A DNA stretch of 64,000 bases. Origin: Bdellovibrionales bacterium (GTDB lineage: Bacteria; Bdellovibrionota; Bdellovibrionia; Bdellovibrionales; JAUICD01). The position numbers and the translations under genes are program-made. Location: assembly GCA_965203275.1 (NCBI GenBank), contig OZ241865.1, positions 1,952,001-2,016,000 of the forward strand, given 5' to 3'. Each line of letters starts with the position of its first letter. Position 1 is the stretch's first letter. Shown one piece after another: positions 3,311 through 57,836 of the stretch. The notes under the pieces are model-generated. The model did not search any database and was not told the origin of the DNA. It saw only the letters and a list, made by a program, of their open reading frames with translations.

Positions 3311-3793
3311 TGTTCCCTCAACATGCTGTTATCTGGGGATCTGGGGGTCCGGGATCTGGGATCGGGCAACCCGGCAGGGATGAAGTGAAAGTCTTGTTTC
3401 CTTAACATGGTATAAAGGTATGAGAGGATTCTCTTTCCGGGATCTGGGATCGGGCAACCCGGCATCAGGCAGGAAAGGCATTTTGTTTCCTTAACATTGT
3501 GTTAAAAAACGAAGGGATCCTCCCTACTAAAAGTGGTCAGACAGCAAGCTTCTCTGAAGCTTGCCATGTAACAACACTAGGTTGCCAGCATTGATGAAGG
3601 AACTTTTTCCTTAACATGTAGTAAAGAAATGAAGGGATCCTCCATACTCAAAGTGAACAGGCTTTCTAGGTTGCCAGCAATTGAGAAGGCGAAAGCCTTC
3701 GGCTGGCAACCAGAAAGTGACCAGAGGTCAGTTTACTTTTAGTGAAAATCAAATGAAGCAATGACCATTTTGTCAACGGCGTAAAAAGTGAAA
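3311..3793 (+). repeat. Cluster of structured repeat family A with GGGATC(C/T) heptamer modules
   Basis: Several TTCCTTAACAT starts, a junction unit at ~3607-3747 with a GAAA-capped stem and TGAC-CAGAG-GTCA hairpin. Confidence 0.9.
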
Positions 3794-5093: not shown

Positions 5094-5690
5094 TTATTCT
5101 GTAGCTCCGGCCTCTTTTAATAGTCTTACAATCTCAATATGATTATTCTCACTAGCCAACTTTAAAGCCGTCCAACCGCTTTTGTTTTGATGACTGAGGT
5201 CAGCTCCGGCCTCTTTTAATAGCCTTACAATATCAATATGATTATTCTCACTAGCAGACATTAAAGCCGTCCAACCTAATCTGTTTTTATGATTGACGTT
5301 AGCTCCGGCCGCTAGCAATAGCTTTACAATCTCTATATGGCCTGCAAAACTAGCCAACATTAAAGCCGACAGTTTAAATATGTCTTGATGATTGACGTTA
5401 GCTCCGGCCGCTAGCAATAACTTTACAATCTCTGTATGGCCTGCAGAACTAGCCAACATTAAAACCGACATTTTAAATATGTCTTGATAATTGACGTCCG
5501 CACCTTTTTCTAGCAATTCCCTTACCGATCTACGGCTACCGGAAACAACGCGATTTAATAAGTCATTATTGAGTAATTCCCTCTCACTTTGATTTGGCAT
5601 AAGGCTTTCAGAATAAGCCCATAGAGAATCACTAGAAACAAGCAAAGCAATAAATAGGATAAAAATATATTTTTTCATTTGTACCTTCAT
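5094..5690 (-). CDS. Secreted ankyrin-repeat protein
   Basis: Signal peptide KKYIFILFIALLVSSDS; 4 repeats of GA(D/N)VN...(T/S)ALM.AS..GH.EIV.LLL; ends LLKEAGATE. Confidence 0.92.
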   Translation of the reverse strand: MKVQMKKYIFILFIALLVSSDSLWAYSESLMPNQSERELLNNDLLNRVVSGSRRSVRELLEKGADVNYQDIFKMSVLMLASSAGHTEIVKLLLAAGANVNHQDIFKLSALMLASFAGHIEIVKLLLAAGANVNHKNRLGWTALMSASENNHIDIVRLLKEAGADLSHQNKSGWTALKLASENNHIEIVRLLKEAGATE

Positions 5691-5741: not shown

Positions 5742-6120
5742 ATTTTCACTCAAAATGCATCATGCCTCTGGCATGTTTTTGGGCGTTTGTCTCACTAAAA
5801 ATAAACCAGCCTCTGGCTGTTTTTGGCGATGACCACGACGGCTCTCGCCGTCGATAAAATGGTCATCACCTAGTGTTTGTTACATGGCAAGCTTCAGAGA
5901 AGCTTGCTGTCTGACCACTTTTAGTAGGAAAAGGATCCTCTCGTCTCTTGACAGGATGTTAAGGAAAAAGCTCCTTCTTACGCCTTGAGTGTTGCCTGCA
6001 ATGGCGAAAGCCTTTGCGGTCATTGTCCAAAAGTAGCCAGAGGCCAGTTCACTTTGAGTGAAACAGAGGTCAGACCACTTTGAGTGAAAATGACGGCATG
6101 ATGCATTTTGAGTGAAATAG
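5742..6120. repeat. Cluster of structured repeat family A (minus-oriented unit, then stacked plus-oriented right ends)
   Basis: CCTCTGG hairpins at ~5763 and ~5807, CCAGAGG at ~6036, three successive ...TGAGTGAAA ends. Confidence 0.9.
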
Positions 6121-19189: not shown

Positions 19190-19412
19190 CACTCATAATA
19201 TTCTTTATTTTTTGAGAGTTACGCAGAATCTAAAAGAGAATAAAAAAACAAAATCTTTTTCCTTAACATTGTATTAAGAAATGAGGACATCCTCCTTCCT
19301 AAAATTGAACAAGCTTTTGAGGCAGTTAGCCTTTGATCGACGGCGTGAGCTGTCGGGCTAACTGCCCAAAAGTAGCCAGAGGCTAGTTCAATTTTAGGGA
19401 ATTAGTGAAACA
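19190..19412 (+). repeat. Partial family B module followed by one complete family A unit
   Basis: GAGAGTTACGCAGAATCTAAAAG, then CCTAAAATTGAAC...GTTCAATTTTAGG outer stem enclosing a GTGA-capped stem and TAGC-CAGAG-GCTA. Confidence 0.9.
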
Positions 19413-23179: not shown

Positions 23180-23381
23180 ATTTTAATACCTCTATTTTAT
23201 ATCATTATACCATTAATCAGCTTTTTGTCAAAAAGTAAGGGGTTGGTCACTCAGAGTGGCTTGAAACTGGATTTTTCTCCACTCTGAGACTAATTCACCC
23301 TTGAGTTATTAAAAAGTTAATGTCTCTTTATTGCCAAAGATCCTCTACCAAAACCTTCACCATCTACTATTGCTATCAAAT

Positions 23382-24425
23382 TTAGTATCGCCGTAGGTAG
23401 ATCCAATCATTATTAGAGATCTTAACAGTGTTACGACGCCCTTCCCTGCCATGGATCTGAGCACCACCAGAAAGCCTAGCATCACCATAGACCGAAACAT
23501 TGTTAGAAATCCTAACATTGTCAGAGATCCAAGCATTTTCATAGACCTTAACAACGTTATCGACCCCATCATCGCCATGGATATGAGCATCACCAGAGAC
23601 TCTAGCATCACCAGAGACCCAAACATTGCCAGAAAGCTCAGCATTGCCAAAGACCCAACCATTTTCAAAGACTCTAGCACCGTCATGGACTTTAGCATAG
23701 CCAGAGACTCTAGCATTGCCAGAGATCCAATTAATGTCATATTGGCCATAGATATGAGCATTTTCATAGACCTGAGCATAGCCAGAGATTCTAGTAGTAC
23801 TATTACCAGAGATTCTAGCATTGTCATAGACCTTAGCAGAGCCAATGATCCAAATATGGCCAATGACCTCAGCCTCGCCAAAGACCTCAGCATCACCCAT
23901 GACTCTAACAGCATCAGAGAGGAAAGCACGGTTATAGACCCTGGCATGAGCGGCGATCACAGCATAGCCAGAGACCTGAGCATAGTTATAAATTGTAGCA
24001 TAGACAGAGATTCTAGCATTGCCAGAGACCTTAGCATGGTCATAAACCTGGGCATGGTCATAGACCTGAGCATGGTCATAGACCTGAGCATGGTCATAGA
24101 CCTGAGCATTGCCAGAGACCTTAGCATGGCCAGAGACCTTAGCATTGTTATAGACTTGAGCATGGTCAGAGACCTTAGCATGGTCAGAGACTTGAGCATT
24201 GTCATAGACCTGAGCATAATCGCAAACTGTAGCATTCGGCCCTACATAAGCTGTATCGGCTACATAAGCTGTATTTGCTACAAAGCCACCACCATTAACA
24301 TGATGGTAACGGCCTTCAACGCCTTCACCACAAGGTGCGTCTGCTAAAGCAAATACACTTAACGACATACTTAATGCCATGATCATCACATTTACATTTA
24401 TTACATTTACATTTATAAAATTCAT
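23382..24425 (-). CDS. Secreted hexapeptide-repeat (left-handed beta-helix-like) protein, paralog 1
   Basis: Signal peptide ...SLSVFALA, then many A(Q/K/R)V(Y/S)(D/G)(N/H) hexads; RBS AGGAGG. Confidence 0.85.
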   Translation of the reverse strand: MNFINVNVINVNVMIMALSMSLSVFALADAPCGEGVEGRYHHVNGGGFVANTAYVADTAYVGPNATVCDYAQVYDNAQVSDHAKVSDHAQVYNNAKVSGHAKVSGNAQVYDHAQVYDHAQVYDHAQVYDHAKVSGNARISVYATIYNYAQVSGYAVIAAHARVYNRAFLSDAVRVMGDAEVFGEAEVIGHIWIIGSAKVYDNARISGNSTTRISGYAQVYENAHIYGQYDINWISGNARVSGYAKVHDGARVFENGWVFGNAELSGNVWVSGDARVSGDAHIHGDDGVDNVVKVYENAWISDNVRISNNVSVYGDARLSGGAQIHGREGRRNTVKISNNDWIYLRRY

Positions 24426-25766: not shown

Positions 25767-26600
25767 TCAAAAAGCAACACCTGTCGGGACAAAATCCTTG
25801 TGAGAGACTATGTCATTATGGACCCGAGTATTGCCAGAGACCATAGCATGGTCAGAGACCATAGCGTGGCCAGAGACCTGAGCATGGTCAAAAACCCAAG
25901 CATTGCTAAAAACTCTAGCCTCGTCATAGACTTGAGCATGGTCATTAATTAGAGCCTCGCCATAGACTCTAGCATAATCCAAGACATGAGCACTGTCAGA
26001 AACTCTAGCATTGTCAGTAACCCGAGCATCACCAGAGACTTGAGCATTGCCAGAGACTATAGCATCACCAGAGACACGAGCAAAGCCATAGACTATAGCA
26101 TCGTCAGTAACCCGAGCATTGTTAGAAACCCTAGCATTGAAAACGACTCTAGCATTGCCAGAGATCCAAGCATTGCCATAGACCATAGCATCACCAGAAA
26201 CTTGAGCATTGCCAGAGACCCGAGCATGACCAAAGACACCACCAGAGACTTGAGCATTGCCAGAGATTTTAGCATTTTCATGGACTTTAGCAAAGCCAGA
26301 GACTACAGCATTGTAAGAGACTCTAGCATTGCCTGCGACTACAGCAAGGCCAGAGACTCTAGCATTGACAGAAACCCTAGCATTGTTTAAGACCTCAGCA
26401 CGACCACAAACAGCAGCATACGGCCCTACATAAGCTGAATCGGCTACATGAGCTGTATTTGCTACAAATCCACCACCATTAGCGTGGTAACGGCCTTCAA
26501 CGCCTTCACCACAAGGTGTGTCTGCTAAAGCAAATACACTTAACGACATACTTAATGCCATAATCATCACATTTACATTTATTACATTTATAAAATTCAT
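25767..26600 (-). CDS. Secreted hexapeptide-repeat protein, paralog 2
   Basis: N-terminus nearly identical to paralog 1; ARVSGN-type hexads. Confidence 0.85.
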   Translation of the reverse strand: MNFINVINVNVMIMALSMSLSVFALADTPCGEGVEGRYHANGGGFVANTAHVADSAYVGPYAAVCGRAEVLNNARVSVNARVSGLAVVAGNARVSYNAVVSGFAKVHENAKISGNAQVSGGVFGHARVSGNAQVSGDAMVYGNAWISGNARVVFNARVSNNARVTDDAIVYGFARVSGDAIVSGNAQVSGDARVTDNARVSDSAHVLDYARVYGEALINDHAQVYDEARVFSNAWVFDHAQVSGHAMVSDHAMVSGNTRVHNDIVSHKDFVPTGVAF

Positions 26601-29238: not shown

Positions 29239-30003
29239 TTATTCTGTAGCTCCGGCCTCTTTTAATAGTCTTTCAATACCAGTATGGCCTCTATCTCTAG
29301 CAAACCATAGAGCTGTCTTGCCAAATTTGTTTTGATGATTGACATTAGCACCATTTTCTAGCAATAGCCTTACAATTTCAATATAATTACCCCCACTAGC
29401 AAAATAATGAAGATCACTAGCAAAAATTAAAGCCGTATTGCCTGTTAAGTTGCTTTGAAGATCGACGTTAGCTCTAAACTTTAGCAATAACCTTACAATT
29501 TCAACATCGCCTCTCATACTAGCTGTTATTAAAGCCGTCCAGCCATCATTGTTTTGAAGATTGACGTTAGCTCTAAACTTTAGCAATAACCTTACAATCT
29601 CTATATTATTATATCTGCTTGCATACCTTAAAGCCGTATTGCCATATTCGTCTTGATGATTGACGTTAGCACCAGCCTTTAGCAATTTCTTTATCAATCT
29701 AGTACGGCCGCCGTCACGAACAAGATTAAATAACCTATTATTTAGCTTCAATAATTCACTCTCACTTAAACCTTTTTGTTTTGAATTTGGCATAAGCAAT
29801 TCAGAACAAGTCCTCAATAGGTCCTTAGATAGAGAATCACTAGAAACAAGCAAAGCAATAAATAAGATAAAAATATATTTTTTCATTTGTACCTTCATTT
29901 GATTTTTTGATTTTATAACATCATATTTCTGAAAAGTCAAGTATGGATTATAAAAAACTAAAAGATGAGAAATTGCTAAAGTCAAACTAAAAAAGTCTAA
30001 CAA
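29239..30003 (-). CDS. Secreted ankyrin-repeat protein (true start probably ~29898, MKVQMKK)
   Basis: Same signal peptide and LLKEAGATE end as 5094-5690; 4-5 ankyrin repeats. Confidence 0.9.
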   Translation of the reverse strand: MLDFFSLTLAISHLLVFYNPYLTFQKYDVIKSKNQMKVQMKKYIFILFIALLVSSDSLSKDLLRTCSELLMPNSKQKGLSESELLKLNNRLFNLVRDGGRTRLIKKLLKAGANVNHQDEYGNTALRYASRYNNIEIVRLLLKFRANVNLQNNDGWTALITASMRGDVEIVRLLLKFRANVDLQSNLTGNTALIFASDLHYFASGGNYIEIVRLLLENGANVNHQNKFGKTALWFARDRGHTGIERLLKEAGATE

Positions 30004-30129
30004 TTACAAACACTTAATACTGTAACTTTTATACAAAAGTCACAGTATTAAGTTACTAGAATCACTGGATTTCCAATTTTCAAATACCTTTTTCCTACCT
30101 TTTAGAAAAATTCCCAAAAACAAACATCT

Positions 30130-31203
30130 TATTTCCCTAACATGCAGTTTATCCGGGATCTGGCATCCGGGATCTGGGAACCCGGGACCTGGCACCCCGG
30201 CAAACTGGCATGAGAAAGAACTTTTTCCTTAACATGTAGTCAAAAAACGAAGATATCCTCTTTACTAAAAGTAAACGGACTTTTGAGGTGATGACCATTT
30301 TATCGACGACGACAGTCGTCGTGGTCATCGCCCAAAAGCAACCAGAGGTTGGTTTACTTTTAGTGAAACAAACTCCTTAACATGTGGTAAAGAGAAAAAA
30401 GGATCCTCCCTACTCAAAATAAATGGATTTTCTAGGCAGTTAGCCTTTGATCAACGGCGATAAGCCGTTGGGCTAACTGTCAGAAAACATGCCAGAGGCA
30501 TGATTTATTTTGAGTGAAACAAACCCTTAACATGTAGTAAAAAGACGAAGAGATCCTCCTCTACTCAAAATGAGTGGATTTTTTAGATGTTGCCTATTTT
30601 GTCAAAGGCGAAAGCCTTTGCAGGCAACACTCAAGGTGTAAGAAGGAACTTTTTCCTTAACATCGTGTCAAGAGGTAAAAGGATTATCCCTAACCCCACC
30701 CCCCGCCCTTCGATTCTGCTTTTCCATTTTGTTTTTACTTGAGGATGAGGGCAGTGTGAGCCTTCCGAAGTCCTCAATTGAGCTTGCTTTTAAGAAGCAA
30801 GCTCAATTTGCGGAAGATCTCCAGTATCCCACTGCCCCATCCTCCTTCTAATTACTTTTTATTTGAGAGTTACGCAGAATCTAAAAGAGAATAAAAAAAC
30901 AAAAAATGAATAGCTTGTTTCCTTAACTTAGTGTTAAAAAACGAGAGGATCCTTCCTACTAAAAGTGGTCAGGCTTTCTAGGCGATGACCATTTTATCGA
31001 TGGCGTGAGCCGTCGTGGTCATCGCCAGAAAGTGGCCAGAGGTCAGACCACTTTTAGTGAAACAGCTCAGCCTTTAATCGACGGCGATAAGCCGTTGGGC
31101 TAACTGTCAGAAAACATGCCAGAGGCATGATTTATTTTGAGTGAACCAAACGGCTAGTTCAATTTTAGGGAAACAGAGGTCAGACCACTTTTAGTGAGCC
31201 AAC
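30130..31203 (+). repeat. Large cluster: heptamer module, three complete family A units, one family B module (30688-30905) and stacked fragments
   Basis: A cores at ~30264-30368, 30411-30518 and 30957-31062, each with a different but self-complementary outer stem. Confidence 0.92.
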
Positions 31204-31205
31204 TC

Positions 31206-32667
31206 CCTGAGTTTGACAACCTGCAAAAATAAAGTTAAGTCAATTTACCTTATCCTCCGCAACGTTTTATATAATCTTCAAAAACATGAACTTTTATCTC
31301 CCTTATATTTTTGTTGTCTTCTAAATAATAAATATCAGGTAAGTTAATACCATTGAAAAAATGAGATTTAACCAAAGAATAACTACCCACTTCCTTAAAT
31401 ATGATCTTTGATCCTATTTCAAGTGGGTTTTTAAAGGAATGACTACCGAAAAGATCTCCTGCAAAGCAACTACGACCAGAAAGTAAATATTTATAAACAC
31501 CTGATGTATCTGTATTTGAAACAAGAGGGAATTGGTGTTCAAGAATTTCTGGTAAGTGATTTATAGTGGTATCTAAAATAGCAACACTTTGTCCATCTCT
31601 TTGAAAAATATCAATAACAGAAGACACTAAAGAAACACACTCTTTAACAAAAGAAGCTCCAGGTTCTATAATAATTTGTTTAAAATTGTATTTTTGCTTG
31701 ATGTGTTCTATTAATTTATAAAAATCAGATATATTTTCTTGATTGTAAGTATAACCACCTCCTAAGTTAATCCAATGGAAATGATTAAGATACTCTCCCA
31801 AAGAAGATTCTATTTGATGAAATGTTTTTTTCATTTCAGATATATCAAAACTATAATGGTTATTATGAAAATGTAGCCCTGTCAGTTTATTTTTAAGTTT
31901 GGAGCTTTTTAAAAATTCCAACATATCTGAGAGGGGAACACCTAATTGCTTAGAAGATAGCCCACAAGGATTATAGCGATTATTTTTAGTAAAGGATATT
32001 TCTGGGTTAATACGAATGCCATAGCTTACTTGAGAGTGCAGATCATTTTGAAGTCTTGTCAATTGCTCTAAAGAGTTAAAGGTCATAAAGTGAATTAATT
32101 CAGATATATCATTCCATTGACTATATTGGATGCCTGGACTAACAAAATGAATAGTGTATTTGTTATTACTCAATTGCTTTGCTAATTTAGCTTCAAAGAG
32201 TGAACTAGTAGAAAACCCTGTGATACATTTTGCAATTTCCTTAAGGGGTTCTATATGAGAAAATGTTTTAAGAGAGTAGATGACCTTTACTTTAGATTCC
32301 TCTGCTATTTTTTTATGAAAAGATGCTTTGTTTTTAAGTTTTTCTTTATCAATAAGAAAATAGGGAGTACGAGAAGGTAAAAGGTTTTTAGATATGAGTT
32401 GATGAATCATTTGAGACCTCCTGATGTTTAAAATAAAATCCTGCAAGAATACTCGAAGATTTTTGATGTTTGTTCAATTTTCATCATCGTTTTTATAATG
32501 TATAGCCTTCCATGTCAAGGCTTTATTGATAAAAATTTACAAAAATATGCTTCACGAGGAATTCTACCAAAATTTAAAAACTAAAACTTACAACCCTCTC
32601 TAACGCCTATAAATAAAGTATTCTGAAAAAAGATGTCCACATTTGCAAATCAACTATCAAACTCAGG
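31206..32667. mobile_element. Putative non-autonomous element bounded by inverted CCTGAGTTTGA(C/T)A ends, carrying nspC
   Basis: CCTGAGTTTGACA at 31206 and TATCAAACTCAGG ending at 32667; 32519-32667 is homologous to 45121-45286. No transposase and no clear target duplication. Confidence 0.45.
31250..32446 (-). CDS. nspC: Carboxynorspermidine/carboxyspermidine decarboxylase-like PLP enzyme
   Basis: TPYFLID, YSLKTFS, SSLFEAKL, RINPE, YNPC...S.LGV, GLHFH, WINLGGG, IEPG, SC.AGD.FG, Y..VK...FNGI.LP. Confidence 0.82.
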   Translation of the reverse strand: MQDFILNIRRSQMIHQLISKNLLPSRTPYFLIDKEKLKNKASFHKKIAEESKVKVIYSLKTFSHIEPLKEIAKCITGFSTSSLFEAKLAKQLSNNKYTIHFVSPGIQYSQWNDISELIHFMTFNSLEQLTRLQNDLHSQVSYGIRINPEISFTKNNRYNPCGLSSKQLGVPLSDMLEFLKSSKLKNKLTGLHFHNNHYSFDISEMKKTFHQIESSLGEYLNHFHWINLGGGYTYNQENISDFYKLIEHIKQKYNFKQIIIEPGASFVKECVSLVSSVIDIFQRDGQSVAILDTTINHLPEILEHQFPLVSNTDTSGVYKYLLSGRSCFAGDLFGSHSFKNPLEIGSKIIFKEVGSYSLVKSHFFNGINLPDIYYLEDNKNIREIKVHVFEDYIKRCGG

Positions 32668-48374: not shown

Positions 48375-49172
48375 TTATTCTGTAGCTCCGGCCTCTCTTA
48401 ATAGTCTTTCAATATCAGTATATCCTTTATTTCTAGCAAGCCATAGAGCTGTCTTGCCTTCATTGTCTTGAAGATTGACGTTGGCTCTGGCCACTAGCAA
48501 TAACCTTACAGTATCTATATTCTCATACCTGCGGATTGCATACATTAAAGCCGTCCGTCCATTATTGTCTTGAAGGTCGGGATCAGCTCCATTCGTTAGA
48601 AAAAAGTCCACTGATAATAATAATCCTAGTTCCGCTGCATACATTAGAGCTGTCTTGCCTTCATTGTCTTGAAGATTGACGTCCGCTCCGGCCGCTAGCA
48701 ATAGCTTTATAATCTCAAGATTGCTATAGTTTACAAACCCAAAGCCCATAAGTATATAACTGGTAAACTTTTCTTGAATTTTATCCCTATCAATGACTTC
48801 TTTTTCAATCAATTCATTTAGAGTCTTACTGGTCGTTTCTTTCATTTTTTCTAAAGCTATCATAAACGAAGCGACTGCATAAGAAAAAACAGAACCACGG
48901 TTATCAATATGATTTACGTCCGCTCCGTTATTTAAGGCTTCGAATACCTTAATGATGTTGCCTTCCTTTACGGCATCGAATAGAGATTGATTTATATCAG
49001 GATTTGGTGATGGGTTTATCGTCGGTGTTGATCTTTGAGTCGGTGTTGATGTTGTATTTGGTGATGGTCTTGCTTGTGTCATTGTGGAACTTGATGTCTG
49101 GCTTTCGACCTTGTCCAACTTATCTTTATAACAATTGTTAAAGCCAAATGCTAAACAAGACAAAACAAACAA
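48375..49172 (-). CDS. Ankyrin-repeat lipoprotein-like protein
   Basis: LAFGFNNC signal, P/T/S linker, ankyrin repeats GADVNLQD..GKTALM.A; ends LLREAGATE. Start uncertain. Confidence 0.88.
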   Translation of the reverse strand: MFVLSCLAFGFNNCYKDKLDKVESQTSSSTMTQARPSPNTTSTPTQRSTPTINPSPNPDINQSLFDAVKEGNIIKVFEALNNGADVNHIDNRGSVFSYAVASFMIALEKMKETTSKTLNELIEKEVIDRDKIQEKFTSYILMGFGFVNYSNLEIIKLLLAAGADVNLQDNEGKTALMYAAELGLLLSVDFFLTNGADPDLQDNNGRTALMYAIRRYENIDTVRLLLVARANVNLQDNEGKTALWLARNKGYTDIERLLREAGATE

Positions 49173-49647: not shown

Positions 49648-49915
49648 TCATGTTAAGGGTTTGTTTCACTAAAAGTGGTCAAGCTTTTGAGGCGGTTAGC
49701 CTTTGATCGACGACGACAGCCAAAAGGTGTAAGAAAGAACTTTTTCCTTAACATGGTGTAAAGAGACGAGAGGATCCTCCCCTACTAAAAGTAAACGGAC
49801 TTTTGAGGTTGCCAGCCTTTGATCGACGGCGGTAGCCGTCGGGCTGGCTACCCAAAAGTGACCAGAGGTCAGTTTACTTTTAGTGAGCCAAAGGTGTGGC
49901 TCATTTTGAGTGAAT
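49648..49915 (+). repeat. Cluster of structured repeat family A, overlapping the stop of the deacetylase gene
   Basis: Complete unit ~49745-49888; final CATTTTGAGTGAA end encodes HSK* of ORF 49901-50959. Confidence 0.88.
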
Positions 49916-53159: not shown

Positions 53160-53608
53160 GATTTTTGAGGTCATCAGCCTTTGATCGACGGCAACAGCCA
53201 AAAGGCGTAAAATAGGACTTTTTCTTTAACATCGAGTTTATCCGGGATCCCGGGATCTGGGATCCGGCAAGCCGGCATCAGTTCCCGGGATGCCTGATTG
53301 CCTGATCCCGGGAGTGAACTTCTTGTTTCCTTAACATGGAGTAAAGAGACGAGGGGATCCTCCTTATTCAAAGTGGTCAGGCTTTTGAGGCAATGACCAT
53401 TTTGCCAATGGCGAAAGCCTTTGCGGTCATTGTCCAAAAACATGGGTGTAAGAAAGGACTTTTTCCTTAACATGTAGTTAAAAAACGAAAGGATCCTTCT
53501 TACTCAAAGTGAACAGGCTTTTGAGGCGATGACCATTTTGTCAAAGGCGGAAGCCTTTGCGGTCATCGTCCAAAAGTGGCCAGAGGCCAGTTCACTTTGA
53601 GTGAGCCA
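53160..53608 (+). repeat. Cluster of structured repeat family A with heptamer module
   Basis: Complete unit ~53463-53606 (ACTCAAAGTGAAC/GTTCACTTTGAGT, GGAA loop, TGGC-CAGAG-GCCA). Confidence 0.9.
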
Positions 53609-53611
53609 ACA

Positions 53612-53926
53612 CACGTATTTCTAAAAGAGGTACGTACGGGTAGATGAGGATCACCGAAATTAGATAATAAAAGGCCCAAAGAAAGGATTGAGAATGATAT
53701 ATACAACAAAGAGTATATATTTATGGTGTTATGCAATGAATTTCTAGCCGATCACCTCAAAATTGACCTTCCTATTCTCTGAAAAGTTCTTGATTTGGTG
53801 GATTTACGAAATTAGAGAGATACATTCAAGGAAGGGAAATTTTGAGGGTGGACAACTCACGTATCTCTGAAAAAGGTACGTACGGGTAGACGAAAACACA
53901 CGAAATTAGATAATAAAAGGCCCAAA
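53612..53926. repeat. Family E repeats: ~69-bp direct repeats (53612-53680, 53858-53926) around a long hairpin (53750-53852)
   Basis: CACGTAT.TCT.AAA.AGGTACGTACGGGTAGA...CGAAATTAGATAATAAAAGGCCCAAA twice. Confidence 0.8.
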
Positions 53927-55169: not shown

Positions 55170-56768
55170 GTGATCAACAAAAAGTATTTCTTAAAAAATC
55201 CATTTTGTTATTCTAGTTTAATTATTTATATTGGCCTAATATTTGTCTTTATTCCTATATCAAGTTTAGCACAAGAGCAAGATGGTGATATCAGAAGAAT
55301 ACCAGGACCAGGAGAGGTCGTAGTCGTAGGTGGAACAGCAGATGAAACACAAGTAGCTAGTGGTGCGGAAGATGCAACAAAAAAGGGTAGTAGATTTGGT
55401 ATATATTCAATGGCTTGCACTACTATTCAAAGCACAGTCCTAGATTTAGCATGCAATCAGAAGGCTTATGCATCGGCGACCAAACCTGTCACAGATCGCT
55501 TCGAACAGATGATGGCCAATAATAGCAATGGAAGTCAGAAGGACCAGTGCCAGTTGGTACAACAGATGAATGAAGCAACTAAAAAAATCAATCAATCCAT
55601 CACAGGCAAATGCCATACGGCCATCCTCTCATGCAAAGGCACTTGTGGTATGGCCCTTAAAAATGCTAAGGTAGCCCACGCTGCTGCTATTGAACCTACG
55701 GCCAAAGCTATGTTCTGGGCAGAGATGACCGCTATTAGCAAGAGTATGGCAAGCTGTGCTAGCAAATGGGCCAGTGTTAAGAAAACCAGCGATCTTCAGA
55801 TAGCTCGTAATACAGATGCCATTAAGCAGGCTAAAGACTGCGTAGATGGTTTGGGTGGATCCGGTGAGTTGAGCGATTCTTCTAATTGCGATCAACTTCC
55901 GCTAACTAAAAAAAACCTCTGTCAACAACTAGGTGAGGTGGCCTTTTGCAAACAACATCCAAAGATAGATTTTTGCCATAGTGTAGATAGCCTCTTTGCC
56001 GGCAAAAAAGATGCCCCCGGTCCTGGTCATACGAATGCCAATGCCATCGACTCAAATCCCCTAAAACAAAGGCTTCCCAGGGGGGGGGGGGACAAACGTC
56101 CAGGAGATCAATCGCAACAAGACTTAGCCACGTCTGAAATATGTCAACAACGTCCAGATAGTCCGGAGTGTAAGAGAGATGAGTGTAATTCTTTACCAAC
56201 TTCAGACACTCGTAGTTTATGCCATGCAGAGGGTATAGAAAAAACTTGCAAATATGTCCCTCAATTACCTCGATGTAAAAAAAGAGCAGCCGATTTAGCT
56301 AAGAATAAGGTCGACCCTTTAAGTGGTCATACAAGTTTAGGATTAAAAGGTGGTTTTGCTGGTGGCGGAAGTGCTGGTGGTTCTGCTGGTGGAGGTTCTG
56401 GCAGTGGAGGAGGCTCTGGCAGTGGTGGCTTAGGTGGCAGTGATTTTGCAAGCGGAGATGGTGCAGAAGGATTAAAGCCACTGGCAGGATCATCTGTGAT
56501 AAAGGTGGATAAGGATGGGAATGTCCATGCTCTTGTGAATGGTCGATATACAAATTTAGGTAGTGGCAGGCGAGCAAGGAATCTCCACAAAAAAATATCA
56601 GGTTTAAGTTATAGTGATTATCTATTGCGGAAGCCTCAAAAGCGAGGACCTGCAAGTATCCAGCAAGGTAAAAGCGAAGAGGTCACATCTGCAAATGGTT
56701 TAACCAACTTCCAAAAAGTCTCCCGAACAATAAAGCTATTGTTCCCTACATTACTTTACTCAAAATAA
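55170..56768 (+). CDS. Cys-rich, Gly-rich exported protein with an internal G12 tract
   Basis: Signal ...ISSLA; many Cys; GGGS linker; C-terminal RGPAS...NFQKVSR reminiscent of Bdellovibrionota secreted proteins. Confidence 0.75.
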   Translation: MINKKYFLKNPFCYSSLIIYIGLIFVFIPISSLAQEQDGDIRRIPGPGEVVVVGGTADETQVASGAEDATKKGSRFGIYSMACTTIQSTVLDLACNQKAYASATKPVTDRFEQMMANNSNGSQKDQCQLVQQMNEATKKINQSITGKCHTAILSCKGTCGMALKNAKVAHAAAIEPTAKAMFWAEMTAISKSMASCASKWASVKKTSDLQIARNTDAIKQAKDCVDGLGGSGELSDSSNCDQLPLTKKNLCQQLGEVAFCKQHPKIDFCHSVDSLFAGKKDAPGPGHTNANAIDSNPLKQRLPRGGGDKRPGDQSQQDLATSEICQQRPDSPECKRDECNSLPTSDTRSLCHAEGIEKTCKYVPQLPRCKKRAADLAKNKVDPLSGHTSLGLKGGFAGGGSAGGSAGGGSGSGGGSGSGGLGGSDFASGDGAEGLKPLAGSSVIKVDKDGNVHALVNGRYTNLGSGRRARNLHKKISGLSYSDYLLRKPQKRGPASIQQGKSEEVTSANGLTNFQKVSRTIKLLFPTLLYSK

Positions 56769-56789: not shown

Positions 56790-57836
56790 CTACTTTTAGT
56801 GAACTAACTCCCTAACCCCACCCCCCGCCCTTCGATCTGCTTTTTCATTTGTATGTTTTTTATGAGTGGAATGCGGAGTCAGGCTTCCGAAGTCCTCAAC
56901 CTTCGCTTGCTTTGGGGAGCAAGCGGGTCTGCGGAAGATCTCCAGCCTGCCTCCGCATCCCACTCATAATATTCATGTTTATTTGAGATTTACGCAGAAT
57001 CTAAAAGAAAATAAAAAAAACAAAAAAACTCTTTTTCCTTAACATGTTGTCAAGAGACGAAGGGATCCTCCTTACTAAAAGTGGTCAAGCTTTCTAGGCG
57101 ATGAGCATTTTATCGACGGCGTGAGCCGTCGTGGTCATCGCCAGAAAGTGACCAGAGGTCAGACCACTTTTAGTGAAACAAAACAAGCTGATAAATTAGG
57201 AGCTTTTTTATACAAGTTATGTAAAAATACTTAAATTCAAATTTAATTTTCCCGGGATCCGGGATCCGGGATCTGGGATCCGGGATCAGACATCAGTTCC
57301 CGGGATGCCTGCTTGCCTGATCCCGGGAATAAATATCTTGTTCCCTTAACATGGTGTAAAGAGACGAGGGGATCCTCCCCTACTAAAAGTAAACGGACTT
57401 TTGAGACATTGCTCTTTTTAGACAGCGAGAGCTGTCAGAGCAATGTCCAAAAGCAACCAGAGGTTGGTTTACTTTTAGTGAACCAACTCCTTAACATCAT
57501 GTTTATCCGGGATCCGGGAACCGGGATCCGGCAGTCAGGCAATCAGGTGTAAGAAGGAACTTTTTCCTTAACATTGTGTAAAGAGACGAAAGGATCCTCC
57601 CTACTAAAAGTAAACGGACTTTTGAGGCATTGCTCTTTTTAGACAGCGTATAGCTGTCAGAGCAATGTCCAAAAGTGACCAGAGGTCAGTTTACTTTTAG
57701 TGAAACAGCTTAGCCTTTGATCGACGGCGGTAGCCGTCGGGCTGATTGCCCAAAAACAGCCAGAGGCTAGTTCAATTTTAGGGAAACAGCCCACTTTTAG
57801 TGAAACAGACGGCATGGTGCATTTTGAGTGAAAAAC
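56790..57836 (+). repeat. Large cluster: family B module (56809-57029), three complete A units, heptamer modules, stacked right ends
   Basis: A cores at ~57074-57179, 57381-57484, 57603-57707; ends within 10 bp of the tRNA 3' end. Confidence 0.92.

Follow-up and report, generated by a model that had tools for sequence, protein, structure and literature searches.

An abundant intergenic DNA repeat with a conserved three-way-junction fold in a Bdellovibrionales bacterium, likely selfish and likely spread as a folded single strand

The small genome of a sponge-associated Bdellovibrionales bacterium (GenBank assembly GCA_965203275.1) contains an intergenic block made solely of repeat units, set end to end. 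This block occupies positions 30130-31203 of the stretch analysed here, a 64,000-nucleotide (nt) part of contig OZ241865.1 that we refer to as the window, and lies between an ankyrin-repeat gene (29239-30003, minus strand) and a gene for a pyridoxal phosphate (PLP)-dependent decarboxylase (31250-32446, minus strand). What is the repeat, termed family A, that recurs in this block, and how has it multiplied? A preliminary description, made from the sequence alone, had seen in it a candidate structured RNA or mobile element of single-stranded DNA. We argue here that family A is a non-coding interspersed DNA repeat, likely selfish, which likely multiplies via a folded single strand recognised by a putative enzyme, an interpretation that we hold to be reasonably probable.

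Each family A unit is ~145-150 nt long. It opens with a conserved 11-nt head (TTCCTTAACAT) and a stretch rich in purines, continues as a three-way junction in which five helices surround one branch point, and closes with a sharply defined 3' tail (..AGTGAAAC). P1 is the outer stem of the junction; P2, P3 and P4 form a long arm with a T-rich bulge and a GNNA loop; and P5 is a hairpin with an AGA loop. Every element of the layout first described (head, P1, P2, P3, T-rich bulge, P4 with its GNNA loop, a CCAGAGG hairpin, P1' and GAAAC) was found, and the stem variants listed with it are present among the window copies. For single copies, the RNA and DNA energy models give the same three-way junction, with z scores of -7.85 (plus strand) and -6.46 (minus strand) for RNA folding, and of -9.4 to -10.3 (plus strand) and -8.1 to -9.4 (minus strand) for DNA folding.

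Copies were located with an nhmmer profile built from 11 window copies and used on both the window and the whole genome, a single contig of 2.57 Mb with 35% G+C. The window yielded 25 matches, 13 near-full and 12 partial, at 3.4-3.7, 5.8-6.1, 19.3, 30.2-31.2, 45.5, 47.8-48.3, 49.7, 53.2-53.6 and 57.0-57.8 kb. All nine places named in the preliminary description were recovered; its count of about 18 near-complete units was not, the profile giving 13 near-full copies plus pieces. Genome-wide there are 1,398 matches, 758 of them near-full, divided about equally between the strands, and removal of overlaps leaves 737 full copies, 297 3'-truncated copies, 246 5'-truncated copies and 67 internal pieces. 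Together these cover 157,444 bases, or 6.1% of the genome. Based on crude gene calls, 98.6% of these bases fall outside genes, and 6 of the 758 full copies lie inside a called gene. One 10-nt word, TCCTTAACAT, occurs 1,036 times, compared to ~2 expected. These data confirm that the element is real and is present at the places named, far above chance.

What is maintained in these copies shows in their paired arms. RNAalifold, applied to the 11 window copies, predicted 42 pairs, 25 of which show compensatory changes. When these pairs were scored in the 758 near-full copies, 30,159 of the 31,836 cells were Watson-Crick. Both arms match perfectly in 597 of the 758 copies for P1, 685 for P2, 563 for P3, 722 for P4 and 698 for P5, compared to means of 99, 213, 61, 138 and 147, respectively, when partners are shuffled. 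All five stems are perfect in 402 of the 758 copies, and there are 243 distinct five-stem allele combinations, each stem existing as a handful of discrete alleles that are mixed among copies. The commonest P1 allele (178 copies), for example, is accompanied by 10 P3 alleles and 6 P5 alleles, and by its exact partner arm in 153 copies. Normalised mutual information between partner arms is 0.90 for P4, 0.85 for P5, 0.81 for P2, 0.74 for P3 and 0.65 for P1. Partner arms, even those 80 nt apart, are more closely linked than adjacent segments, and hence the pairing does not just reflect shared descent of whole copies.

We extended this line of inquiry to a second species. An alignment of 47 copies was assembled from 11 window copies, 34 copies of a sister species of the same genus (G001) and 2 copies from contig C11 of the genome bin G004; the 36 copies from relatives were chosen to be allele-distinct, 7 of 43 such copies having been left out for length before counting. 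In this alignment, 96.6% of 1,967 cells are paired, compared to 33-48% when the partners are slid by 1-3 columns, and 31 of the 42 pairs change on both sides. None of 500 shuffles reached any of the five two-species measures. The CC/GG pairs of P5, which are invariant in this genome, are TC/GA in the sister species. These compensatory changes, and the matched arms of the mosaic copies, bear out the idea that structure rather than sequence is selected, and in a form more elaborate than the hairpins of REP elements. Nor did an Rfam family match the fold, in line with the preliminary description, which could place it in no familiar family: nothing but two tRNAs reached the gathering score in the whole window, and every match obtained at E values up to 10 on 30000-31300 was far below that score.

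Family A has a narrow range. The head pattern has 797 matches in this genome (G000), 163 in the sister species and 4 in G004, and none in 38 other relatives. In GTDB, at one genome per species, it occurs in two 'MAG: Bdellovibrionales bacterium' records and otherwise as two single chance matches. When 101 genomes of the order were searched with a covariance model of the fold, matches came from G000, from G001 and from three contigs of G004, namely C1, C4 and C11 (loci L021, L024 and L115); the 98 other genomes gave none. The G004 bin is mixed, which affects the counts for 'genus g3': C11 carries, along with the element, a second rplN that is 98% identical to that of G001, while the G004 genome's own rplN lies on C14. 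Judged by rplN, a test that covered C11 among the three element-bearing contigs, C11 belongs to a G001-like organism, and presence in a second genus, considered for a time, was withdrawn. Family A has thus been seen so far in one genus only. Blastn against plasmid and phage collections gave no match, and a non-exhaustive full-text search found no publication on repeats of this lineage. DNA of the organism is present in sequencing runs of five studies; the runs of one study are labelled sponge metagenome, and the remaining runs carry coded organism names. Contigs of four runs break at family A repeats and span no cluster; the joints reported from them are those of other copies.

The head is not part of the covarying fold. 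A helix in the head/GGATCC region shows no covariation and many A.C cells, and the head is a sequence motif that other repeat families also carry. Its first 11-12 bases are near-invariant in both species, followed by a purine run and GGATCC (GAGTC in the sister species). Counting the pattern CC[TC]TAACAT over the whole genome, chance matches included, gave 1,271 head words, of which 874 lead into a family A body, 139 into CCGGGATC runs and a few into a third family, C; in 100 cases the head directly abuts an inverted tail (AACAT joined to TTCACT). A short arm upstream of the head (AAGGAA; ATGTTAAG in G001) can pair with it. The head's own inverted repeat, CTTAACA..TGTTAAG, is only partly paired (400 of 758 copies at one position) and stands at one end of the unit. 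Overall, the head has the look of a site for recognition or joining that several repeat families share and that lies outside the fold. An origin from a Xer/dif site was entertained, as the head shares TTAACAT with a dif arm, and was dropped when a dif-like site including the head was not found.

Families B and C (window 30130-30223, 30657-30900, 56805-57000 and 57240-57340) start with the family A head and share its first 11-40 bases only. In family B these are followed by CCGGGATC-type runs, and in family C by CCCTAACCCCACCCC and a long hairpin. Family C recurs at 56805-57000 and also serves as an insertion target of family A (case e65, below).

How the units lie with respect to one another can be seen in the block itself, listed here by window position. 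Stem coordinates of copy 1 were mapped from the columns of the two-species alignment, and the minimum-free-energy folds, both as RNA and as DNA, agree with them.

30130-30223, plus strand: family B unit; head-like TTTCCCTAACAT, then CCGGGATCTGG-type runs, ending in the purine-rich GAGAAAGAACTTTT that precedes the next head
30224-30372, plus strand: family A copy 1, near-full (nhmmer E = 8.5e-43)
30224-30235, plus strand: head of copy 1, TTTCCTTAACAT
30264-30276 with 30352-30364, plus strand: P1 of copy 1
30280-30285 with 30333-30338, plus strand: P2 of copy 1
30287-30297 with 30322-30332, plus strand: P3 of copy 1
30298-30303, plus strand: bulge of copy 1
30304-30310 with 30315-30321, plus strand: P4 of copy 1, with loop GACA at 30311-30314
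30339-30343 with 30347-30351, plus strand: P5 of copy 1, with loop AGA
30365-30369, plus strand: tail GAAAC of copy 1
30374-30523, plus strand: family A copy 2, near-full, directly behind copy 1, with other P1, P3 and P5 alleles (ACTCAAAATAAAT / GGCAGTTAGCC / CATGCC)
30525-30626, plus strand: 3'-truncated family A copy lacking the 3' third (model positions 5-105), followed by the linker CTCAAGGTGTAAGAAGGAACTTTT and a new head
~30657-30900, plus strand: family C unit; family A head and a purine/GGAT stretch, then CCCTAACCCCACCCCCCGCCC and a long hairpin at ~30741-30850
30918-31069, plus strand: family A copy 4, near-full, with head variant TTTCCTTAACTT and P1 ACTAAAAGTGGTC / GACCACTTTTAGT (nhmmer E = 1.5e-44; DNA fold -40.3 kcal/mol, z = -9.6)
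31067-31151, plus strand: 5'-truncated family A copy lacking the 5' half (model positions 70-151), joined straight onto the tail of copy 4
31153-31203, plus strand: two stacked 3' fragments of family A, GCTAGTTCAATTTTAGGGAAAC (P5', P1' and tail) and then AGAGGTCAGACCACTTTTAGTGAGCC, which resumes in the P5 loop

Elsewhere in the window, the following copies were found.

3606-3747, plus strand: near-full copy with a chimeric P1 (5' arm of the GTGAAC allele, 3' arm of the GTAAAC allele)
5785-5967, minus strand: near-full copy, from nhmmer
19258-19408, plus strand: near-full copy with P1 CCTAAAATTGAAC
45456-45606, plus strand: near-full copy
47815-48279, minus strand: cluster of one near-full copy (47883-48028) and three pieces
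49743-49893, plus strand: near-full copy
53326-53613, plus strand: pair, 3'-truncated (53326-53441) and then near-full (53462-53613)
57034-57793, plus strand: cluster with near-full copies at 57034, 57341 and 57563, then stacked 5'-truncated copies, each with a terminal GAAAC

The same arrangements recur genome-wide. As a rule, 5'-truncated copies lie directly behind another tail (..AGTGAAAC plus 0-7 bases). Behind 3'-truncated copies come a linker rich in purines (..AGAAGGAACTTT) and then a new head. A succession of one 3'-truncated copy, some whole copies and one 5'-truncated copy was seen 71 times. An interrupted older copy resumes a few bases past the break, the hot spots being model positions 83, 98 and 121, and 92 of 615 copies have CAGAGG straight after the tail. 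Several nested insertions land at CAGAGG or AGAAGG-like sites. As a separate observation, many sister-species copies (G001 loci L038, L059, L065, L094 and others) carry 1-3 tandem 14-nt inserts (CTCGCCTCGAGAGG) in the P5 loop, which is the nesting site in this genome.

Comparison of filled and empty sites gives a more direct view of insertion. A junction-spanning BLAST search for empty sites gave spanning matches for 116 of 615 copies, mostly because the flanks are themselves family A. Eight alignments of paralogous sites were inspected, of which 6 are informative and two (e47, e176) are confounded by family A flanks. In e224, a 5' extension (GATAGAAGAACTTTT), head and body through ..GAAACA are cleanly inserted into unrelated DNA, with no duplication. 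In e65, insertion into the hairpin loop of family C was accompanied by loss of the 3' hairpin arm. In e293, the unit entered the P5 loop of an older copy at CAGAGG, and 15 bases of the target are missing to its left; in other pairs a few target bases are replaced. One identical body found at seven places shares 17 to >130 bases of left context, and on the right the sequences diverge right after ..GGGAAACAGAGG; in three places this left context stops at a tail or at a P3 strand switch. The right (tail) end of the element is exact and the left end variable, which fits copying or joining anchored at the tail. A difference between the two species also points to movement: the rpsQ-rplN spacer is empty here, at 23 nt, and has at least three copies in the sister species. 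Nested, 5'-truncated and stacked copies, together with the filled and empty sites, bear out the earlier suggestion that family A behaves as a mobile or amplifying element.

If family A does multiply through a folded single strand, the process might run as follows. The fold would be needed for propagation, and chimeras with arms that do not pair would fail to spread. Folding would take place in the plus strand, with DNA a likelier form than RNA. Copying would be anchored at the tail and would run a variable distance towards and past the head, leaving composite units and copies truncated at the 5' end. Tandem duplication in place, and recombination where conserved motifs stand at the junctions, would add to the mosaics. 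The enzyme would not be a Y1/HUH transposase of this genome, nor would it be a reverse transcriptase of this genome.

Several results weigh against this proposal, and they concern the way copies arise, the strand and the enzyme. With regard to the first, the copies in the rpsQ-rplN spacer of the sister species and of a G001-like contig all lie along transcription, and each was duplicated along with 52 nt of flanking rpsQ sequence. Plainly, part of the amplification is tandem duplication of the element with flanking DNA, and recombination by itself may account for some of the mosaicism. No regular target-site duplication shows in the 6 filled/empty pairs that are informative, a small sample, and several of them lose target bases. 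In addition, GC skew is weak and irregular, and neither replichores nor a replication-strand bias can be read from it.

As for the strand, G.T pairs had been taken to mark the one that folds, a claim that fails genome-wide. Among the 758 copies there are 349 G.T and 383 A.C cells (342 and 208 without one misaligned column), and the excess of G.T sits in two P3 positions, which supply 117 of these cells. Wobble pairs thus give no strand mark genome-wide. In both energy models the two strands would fold nearly equally well, so that strand and molecule type can be suggested rather than read off directly. Plus-strand DNA folds are more stable than minus-strand folds by 3.5-4.2 kcal/mol in 3/3 copies, and some features are one-stranded, namely the AGA loop of P5, the T-rich bulge and a head unlike the tail. 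The P4 loop begins with G in 723 of 758 copies and ends with A in 732, the middle being variable; 415 loops are GNRA and 303 are GNYA (GATA, GGTA, GACA). The stability of RNA tetraloops calls for GNRA, whereas DNA mini-hairpins accept GNNA. The GNYA loops lean towards DNA over RNA, though not decisively, and the GNNA loop and DNA fold energies favour the plus strand as the folding strand.

The search for an enzyme was largely negative. None of 6 candidates scored here matched Y1_Tnp (PF01797), for which 6 of 14 control genomes were positive, and RVT_1 (PF00078) gave no candidates in this genome, which is 90% complete by marker genes, though in one contig. An HUH/RAYT transposase or reverse transcriptase partner, as proposed earlier, is therefore absent from this genome in the Y1_Tnp and RVT_1 searches. 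Y2_Tnp (PF04986) had no matches here, but also none in all 14 control genomes. The only match to PF07282 (Cas12f/TnpB zinc-ribbon) sits in a 1,365-amino-acid frame, and there are two tyrosine recombinases. An autonomous 'master' copy was not found either: 44 head-to-tail spans of 0.4-6 kb have no common gene, and matching P1 arms occur in 6 of the 44, about the chance rate. In the sister species there is one Y1 gene, IS200-type with its own unrelated hairpins, and the nearest family A match is ~1.8 kb away.

Other candidates were rejected. An IS256-like insertion sequence (IS) of 1,400 bp, present in 7 full-length copies at 99.9-100% identity plus one at 95.6%, with 8-bp target duplications, was considered as the parent element; its ends are unrelated to family A. 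Its full-length copies lie at G000:C1 214264-215663 and six other places, with terminal inverted repeats (TIRs) that start GAGCATGTCC/GAGCTTGTCC, and one copy sits inside a family A P4 stem. None of the multi-copy open reading frames (ORFs) could be tied to family A, whether they encode ankyrin, coiled-coil, secreted Cys-rich, pilin-like or 23S-IVP four-helix proteins, or PD-(D/E)XK_2, Transposase_31, IS256-type transposase or resolvase proteins. Transposase_31 (16 matches in the element-free G003) and 23S_rRNA_IVP (19 in G004), whose genes are expanded as those of PD-(D/E)XK_2 are, fail to track family A.

Co-occurrence of PD-(D/E)XK_2 with the element first looked perfect, with 14, 5, 0, 0 and 1 matches in the five genomes of the family. 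This link is weakened by three observations: such genes are present in four members of the order without the head, one of which has 14 copies; in G004 the gene is on a contig truly of that genome, and the elements are on other contigs, at least one of which (C11) is from a G001-like organism; and in neither G001 nor G004 is there an element less than 3 kb from these genes. Some of these genes are in contact with family A in the present genome. A family A fragment interrupts three of them (G000:C1 892522-893097, 907596-908171 and 2024960-2025535), and a new ribosome-binding site and ATG follow the fragment. In the four other copies for which the 3' end was read, the gene runs without a spare base into the tail of a family A piece that is inverted and has a different P1 allele, and this tail supplies the last codons and the stop. 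Nuclease genes of the PD-(D/E)XK and YhgA/Rpn-like types are numerous (14 and 16 matches), and both recur among the multi-copy ORFs.

A more specific version of the folded-strand proposal can be put forward as a long shot. Families A, B and C would serve a new bacterial system of single-strand transposition or copy-joining as its substrate, and neither an HUH transposase nor a reverse transcriptase would be involved. Two precise cuts, one behind the P1 stem (..AGTGAAAC^) and one behind the head hairpin (..TTCCTTAACAT^), would be made by a structure-specific nuclease, and the freed end would be joined or extended into exposed hairpin loops. The nuclease may belong to one of the expanded PD-(D/E)XK 'transposase' or Rpn-like families of this genome.

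Could the element act at the RNA level instead, as a structured cis-acting or small RNA of the kind proposed for bcr1, or as a SINE-like retroelement that a reverse transcriptase in trans would copy, beginning at the 3' end? The sharp 3' end, the 5' truncation, the leftward composites, and the exact 3' junction paired with a ragged 5' junction that loses target bases, are all expected if a template is copied from a fixed 3' end. In the sister species, P4 loops are mostly of the GNRA type (GTAA, GTGA, GCAA), and its copies in the rpsQ-rplN spacer, being within a ribosomal-protein operon in plus orientation, must be co-transcribed. There is a precedent in bcr1, a 155-bp repeat for which PMC3184786 describes compensatory changes at the RNA level. 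The sister species also has three RVT_1 genes, one with a family A copy ~440 nt downstream on the same strand. By its motifs, this gene appears to be retron-like. However, the copy downstream of it has tRNA-like repeats on either side and a tRNA gene as its neighbour, at what looks like the border of an island; the other two RVT_1 loci are without a copy; and the genome richest in copies has no RVT_1 candidate at all. Gene orientation is not biased (in co-directional intergenic regions, 214 copies lie with the flanking genes and 181 against), promoter-like sites are at the chance level (3 found, 3.3 expected), and the 303 GNYA loops run counter to the GNRA rule for RNA. On balance, we regard an RNA-level element as unlikely.

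Alternatively, no dedicated enzyme might be involved, copies arising by tandem duplication, unequal or microhomology recombination, template switching at forks, and hairpin-templated repair in which one arm is copied from the other, so that the arms stay complementary. The segmental duplication of rpsQ flanks in the sister species is of this kind, as are the strand-switch recombinants at the palindromic P3. At some left junctions, the target resembles the purine stretch that precedes the head (GAGAAGG in P4, CCAGAGG in P5, and AGAAAGGAGG at a ribosome-binding site). The near equality of G.T and A.C mismatches is expected of fresh mutations on near-perfect palindromes, and the many PD-(D/E)XK and YhgA/Rpn-like nuclease matches would also fit. 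Against this, e224 is a whole unit cleanly inserted into unrelated DNA with no homology at the junction, hundreds of junctions with unrelated partners show a tail boundary that does not shift by a base, and the two species share an invariant head, though their stems change. Moreover, ~1,350 copies spread over the chromosome would be hard to reach by local duplication. We consider it doubtful that these processes suffice.

A host-serving signal (a bidirectional terminator, a stabiliser of mRNA 3' ends, a site for a nucleoid protein or recombinase, or an uptake signal) would fit the almost purely intergenic placement, the conservation of head and fold between two species and the enrichment of terminator-like matches in the region (8, compared to 1.4 expected), but it is very unlikely, as this enrichment arises because the small P5 hairpin precedes T-rich stem arms (P1' or P2') on either strand, the T-runs are paired inside P1 and P2, sister-species copies sit inside a ribosomal-protein operon upstream of rplN while the orthologous site is empty here, truncated, nested and chimeric copies are common, three PD-(D/E)XK genes are split, the element was not found in 98 other genomes of the order, and a load of 6% is typical of selfish DNA.

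How does family A compare with known systems? Like the REP, BIME and REPIN elements of E. coli, Pseudomonas and Stenotrophomonas, which together with the RAYT (TnpA-REP, Y1 HUH) transposases are discussed in PMC3184786, it is a very abundant, non-autonomous intergenic palindrome found in both orientations. Those elements, too, are conserved as hairpins with a short conserved motif beside the stem and are thought to move as folded single-stranded DNA. Family A differs in being four to five times longer, in forming a three-way junction rather than a single hairpin of 20-40 nt, and in having a 40-nt unpaired head that it shares with other families, without a GTAG-type motif; nor does this genome have a RAYT or other Y1 gene by the PF01797 search.

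In size, family A is closest to bcr1 of the Bacillus cereus group, a ~155-bp element that, according to PMC3184786, is transcribed, has 5-bp direct repeats and keeps its fold by compensatory changes. Both are dispersed, have a non-conserved genomic distribution and maintain a multi-stem ('cruciform-like') fold in this way. The likeness is in kind only, as there is no sequence similarity. Unlike bcr1, the few clean family A sites show no regular direct repeats, the copies number many hundreds and make up 6% of the genome, and stem alleles are mixed among them. Bacterial MITEs (transposable elements of the miniature inverted-repeat type) such as Correia/NEMIS, ERIC/RU-1, RUP and Nezha, as reviewed in PMC3184786 and PMC10969869, are likewise short, non-coding, AT-rich, foldable, intergenic and amplified, and they can nest and interrupt genes. 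In contrast to TIR-type MITEs, the head and tail of family A are not inverted repeats of each other, P1 being subterminal and the head outside it; there is no parent IS with the same ends, and the 6 informative sites show no regular duplication.

Asymmetric ends, subterminal hairpins, absence of TIRs and absence of target duplication are characteristic of palindrome-associated elements (PATEs) derived from IS200/IS605, and of the rolling-circle elements IS91/ISCR and Helitrons. Family A resembles them in having one exact and one leaky end, likely strand specificity and hairpins near both ends. Its minus strand has a fixed start (the tail) and ends in a small hairpin, AAGGAA..TTCCTT, beside AACAT, much like an origin-terminator pair. 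Neither TnpA (Y1), by the PF01797 search, nor TnpB, by the PF07282 search, was found with it here, in contrast to PATEs. The CAGAGG or AGAAGG-like sites of several nested insertions point to no single fixed target word. It differs from retroelements in that this genome has no RVT_1 candidate, and from integron attC arrays in that the head inverted repeat stands at one end only and the units lie back to back, without cassettes, in both orientations. Collectively, family A works like REP/REPIN and other foldable non-autonomous repeats, with bcr1 its nearest analogue in size and compensatory evolution. Features that define REP-RAYT, TIR-type MITEs, derivatives of IS200/IS605 and retroelements are missing from it.

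Other features of the window were recorded alongside. Ankyrin-repeat genes with a 99-nt period, apparently from a 31-member gene family, lie at 5094-5690, 29239-30003 and 48375-49172; this family is consistent with a host-associated life. A type II CRISPR-Cas locus at 38534-43541 has a Cas9-like ORF of 1,047 amino acids (HNH_4, RuvC_III), two small ORFs (299 and 109 amino acids) behind it, and an array (42958-43541) in which 9 or more repeats recur every 66 nt. The gene at 45666-47798 encodes a signal-peptide protein with an N-terminal part of ~270 amino acids and ~10 tandem helix-turn-helix-like repeats of 42-43 amino acids (..KAIAEVSEQTGIPVDTLTRWFYY..); it probably belongs to an 11-copy family of the clustering and, to judge from its sequence, may be a secreted DNA-binding repeat protein. 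A 532-amino-acid secreted protein, Cys-rich and Gly-rich and without a family match, is encoded at 55170-56768 and belongs to a 9-copy family. Simple repeats include a ATAATATAAAAGACAT-like 16-nt tandem repeat of ~10 copies (2044-2235) and two regions with an 18-nt period and both strands open (23357-24425 and 25767-26600).

When bacterial repeats are conserved in shape and not in sequence, they are in most cases small hairpins that go with a known HUH transposase. Family A, a branched fold of 150 nt whose matching stems are interchangeable, fills 6% of a small symbiont genome from which the usual enzymes are absent. It accounts for most of the intergenic DNA of the genus, and each of its clusters is a break point in short-read assemblies. 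A dedicated enzyme, should there be one, would represent a new route of single-strand DNA mobility and possibly a tool that recognises structured DNA; and were the copy-join version of this proposal true, the genus would provide the first natural substrate for assigning a mobilising activity to orphan 'putative transposase' families. If no such enzyme exists, the family would be a natural experiment in how palindromic DNA amplifies, and keeps its fold, by replication and repair alone.

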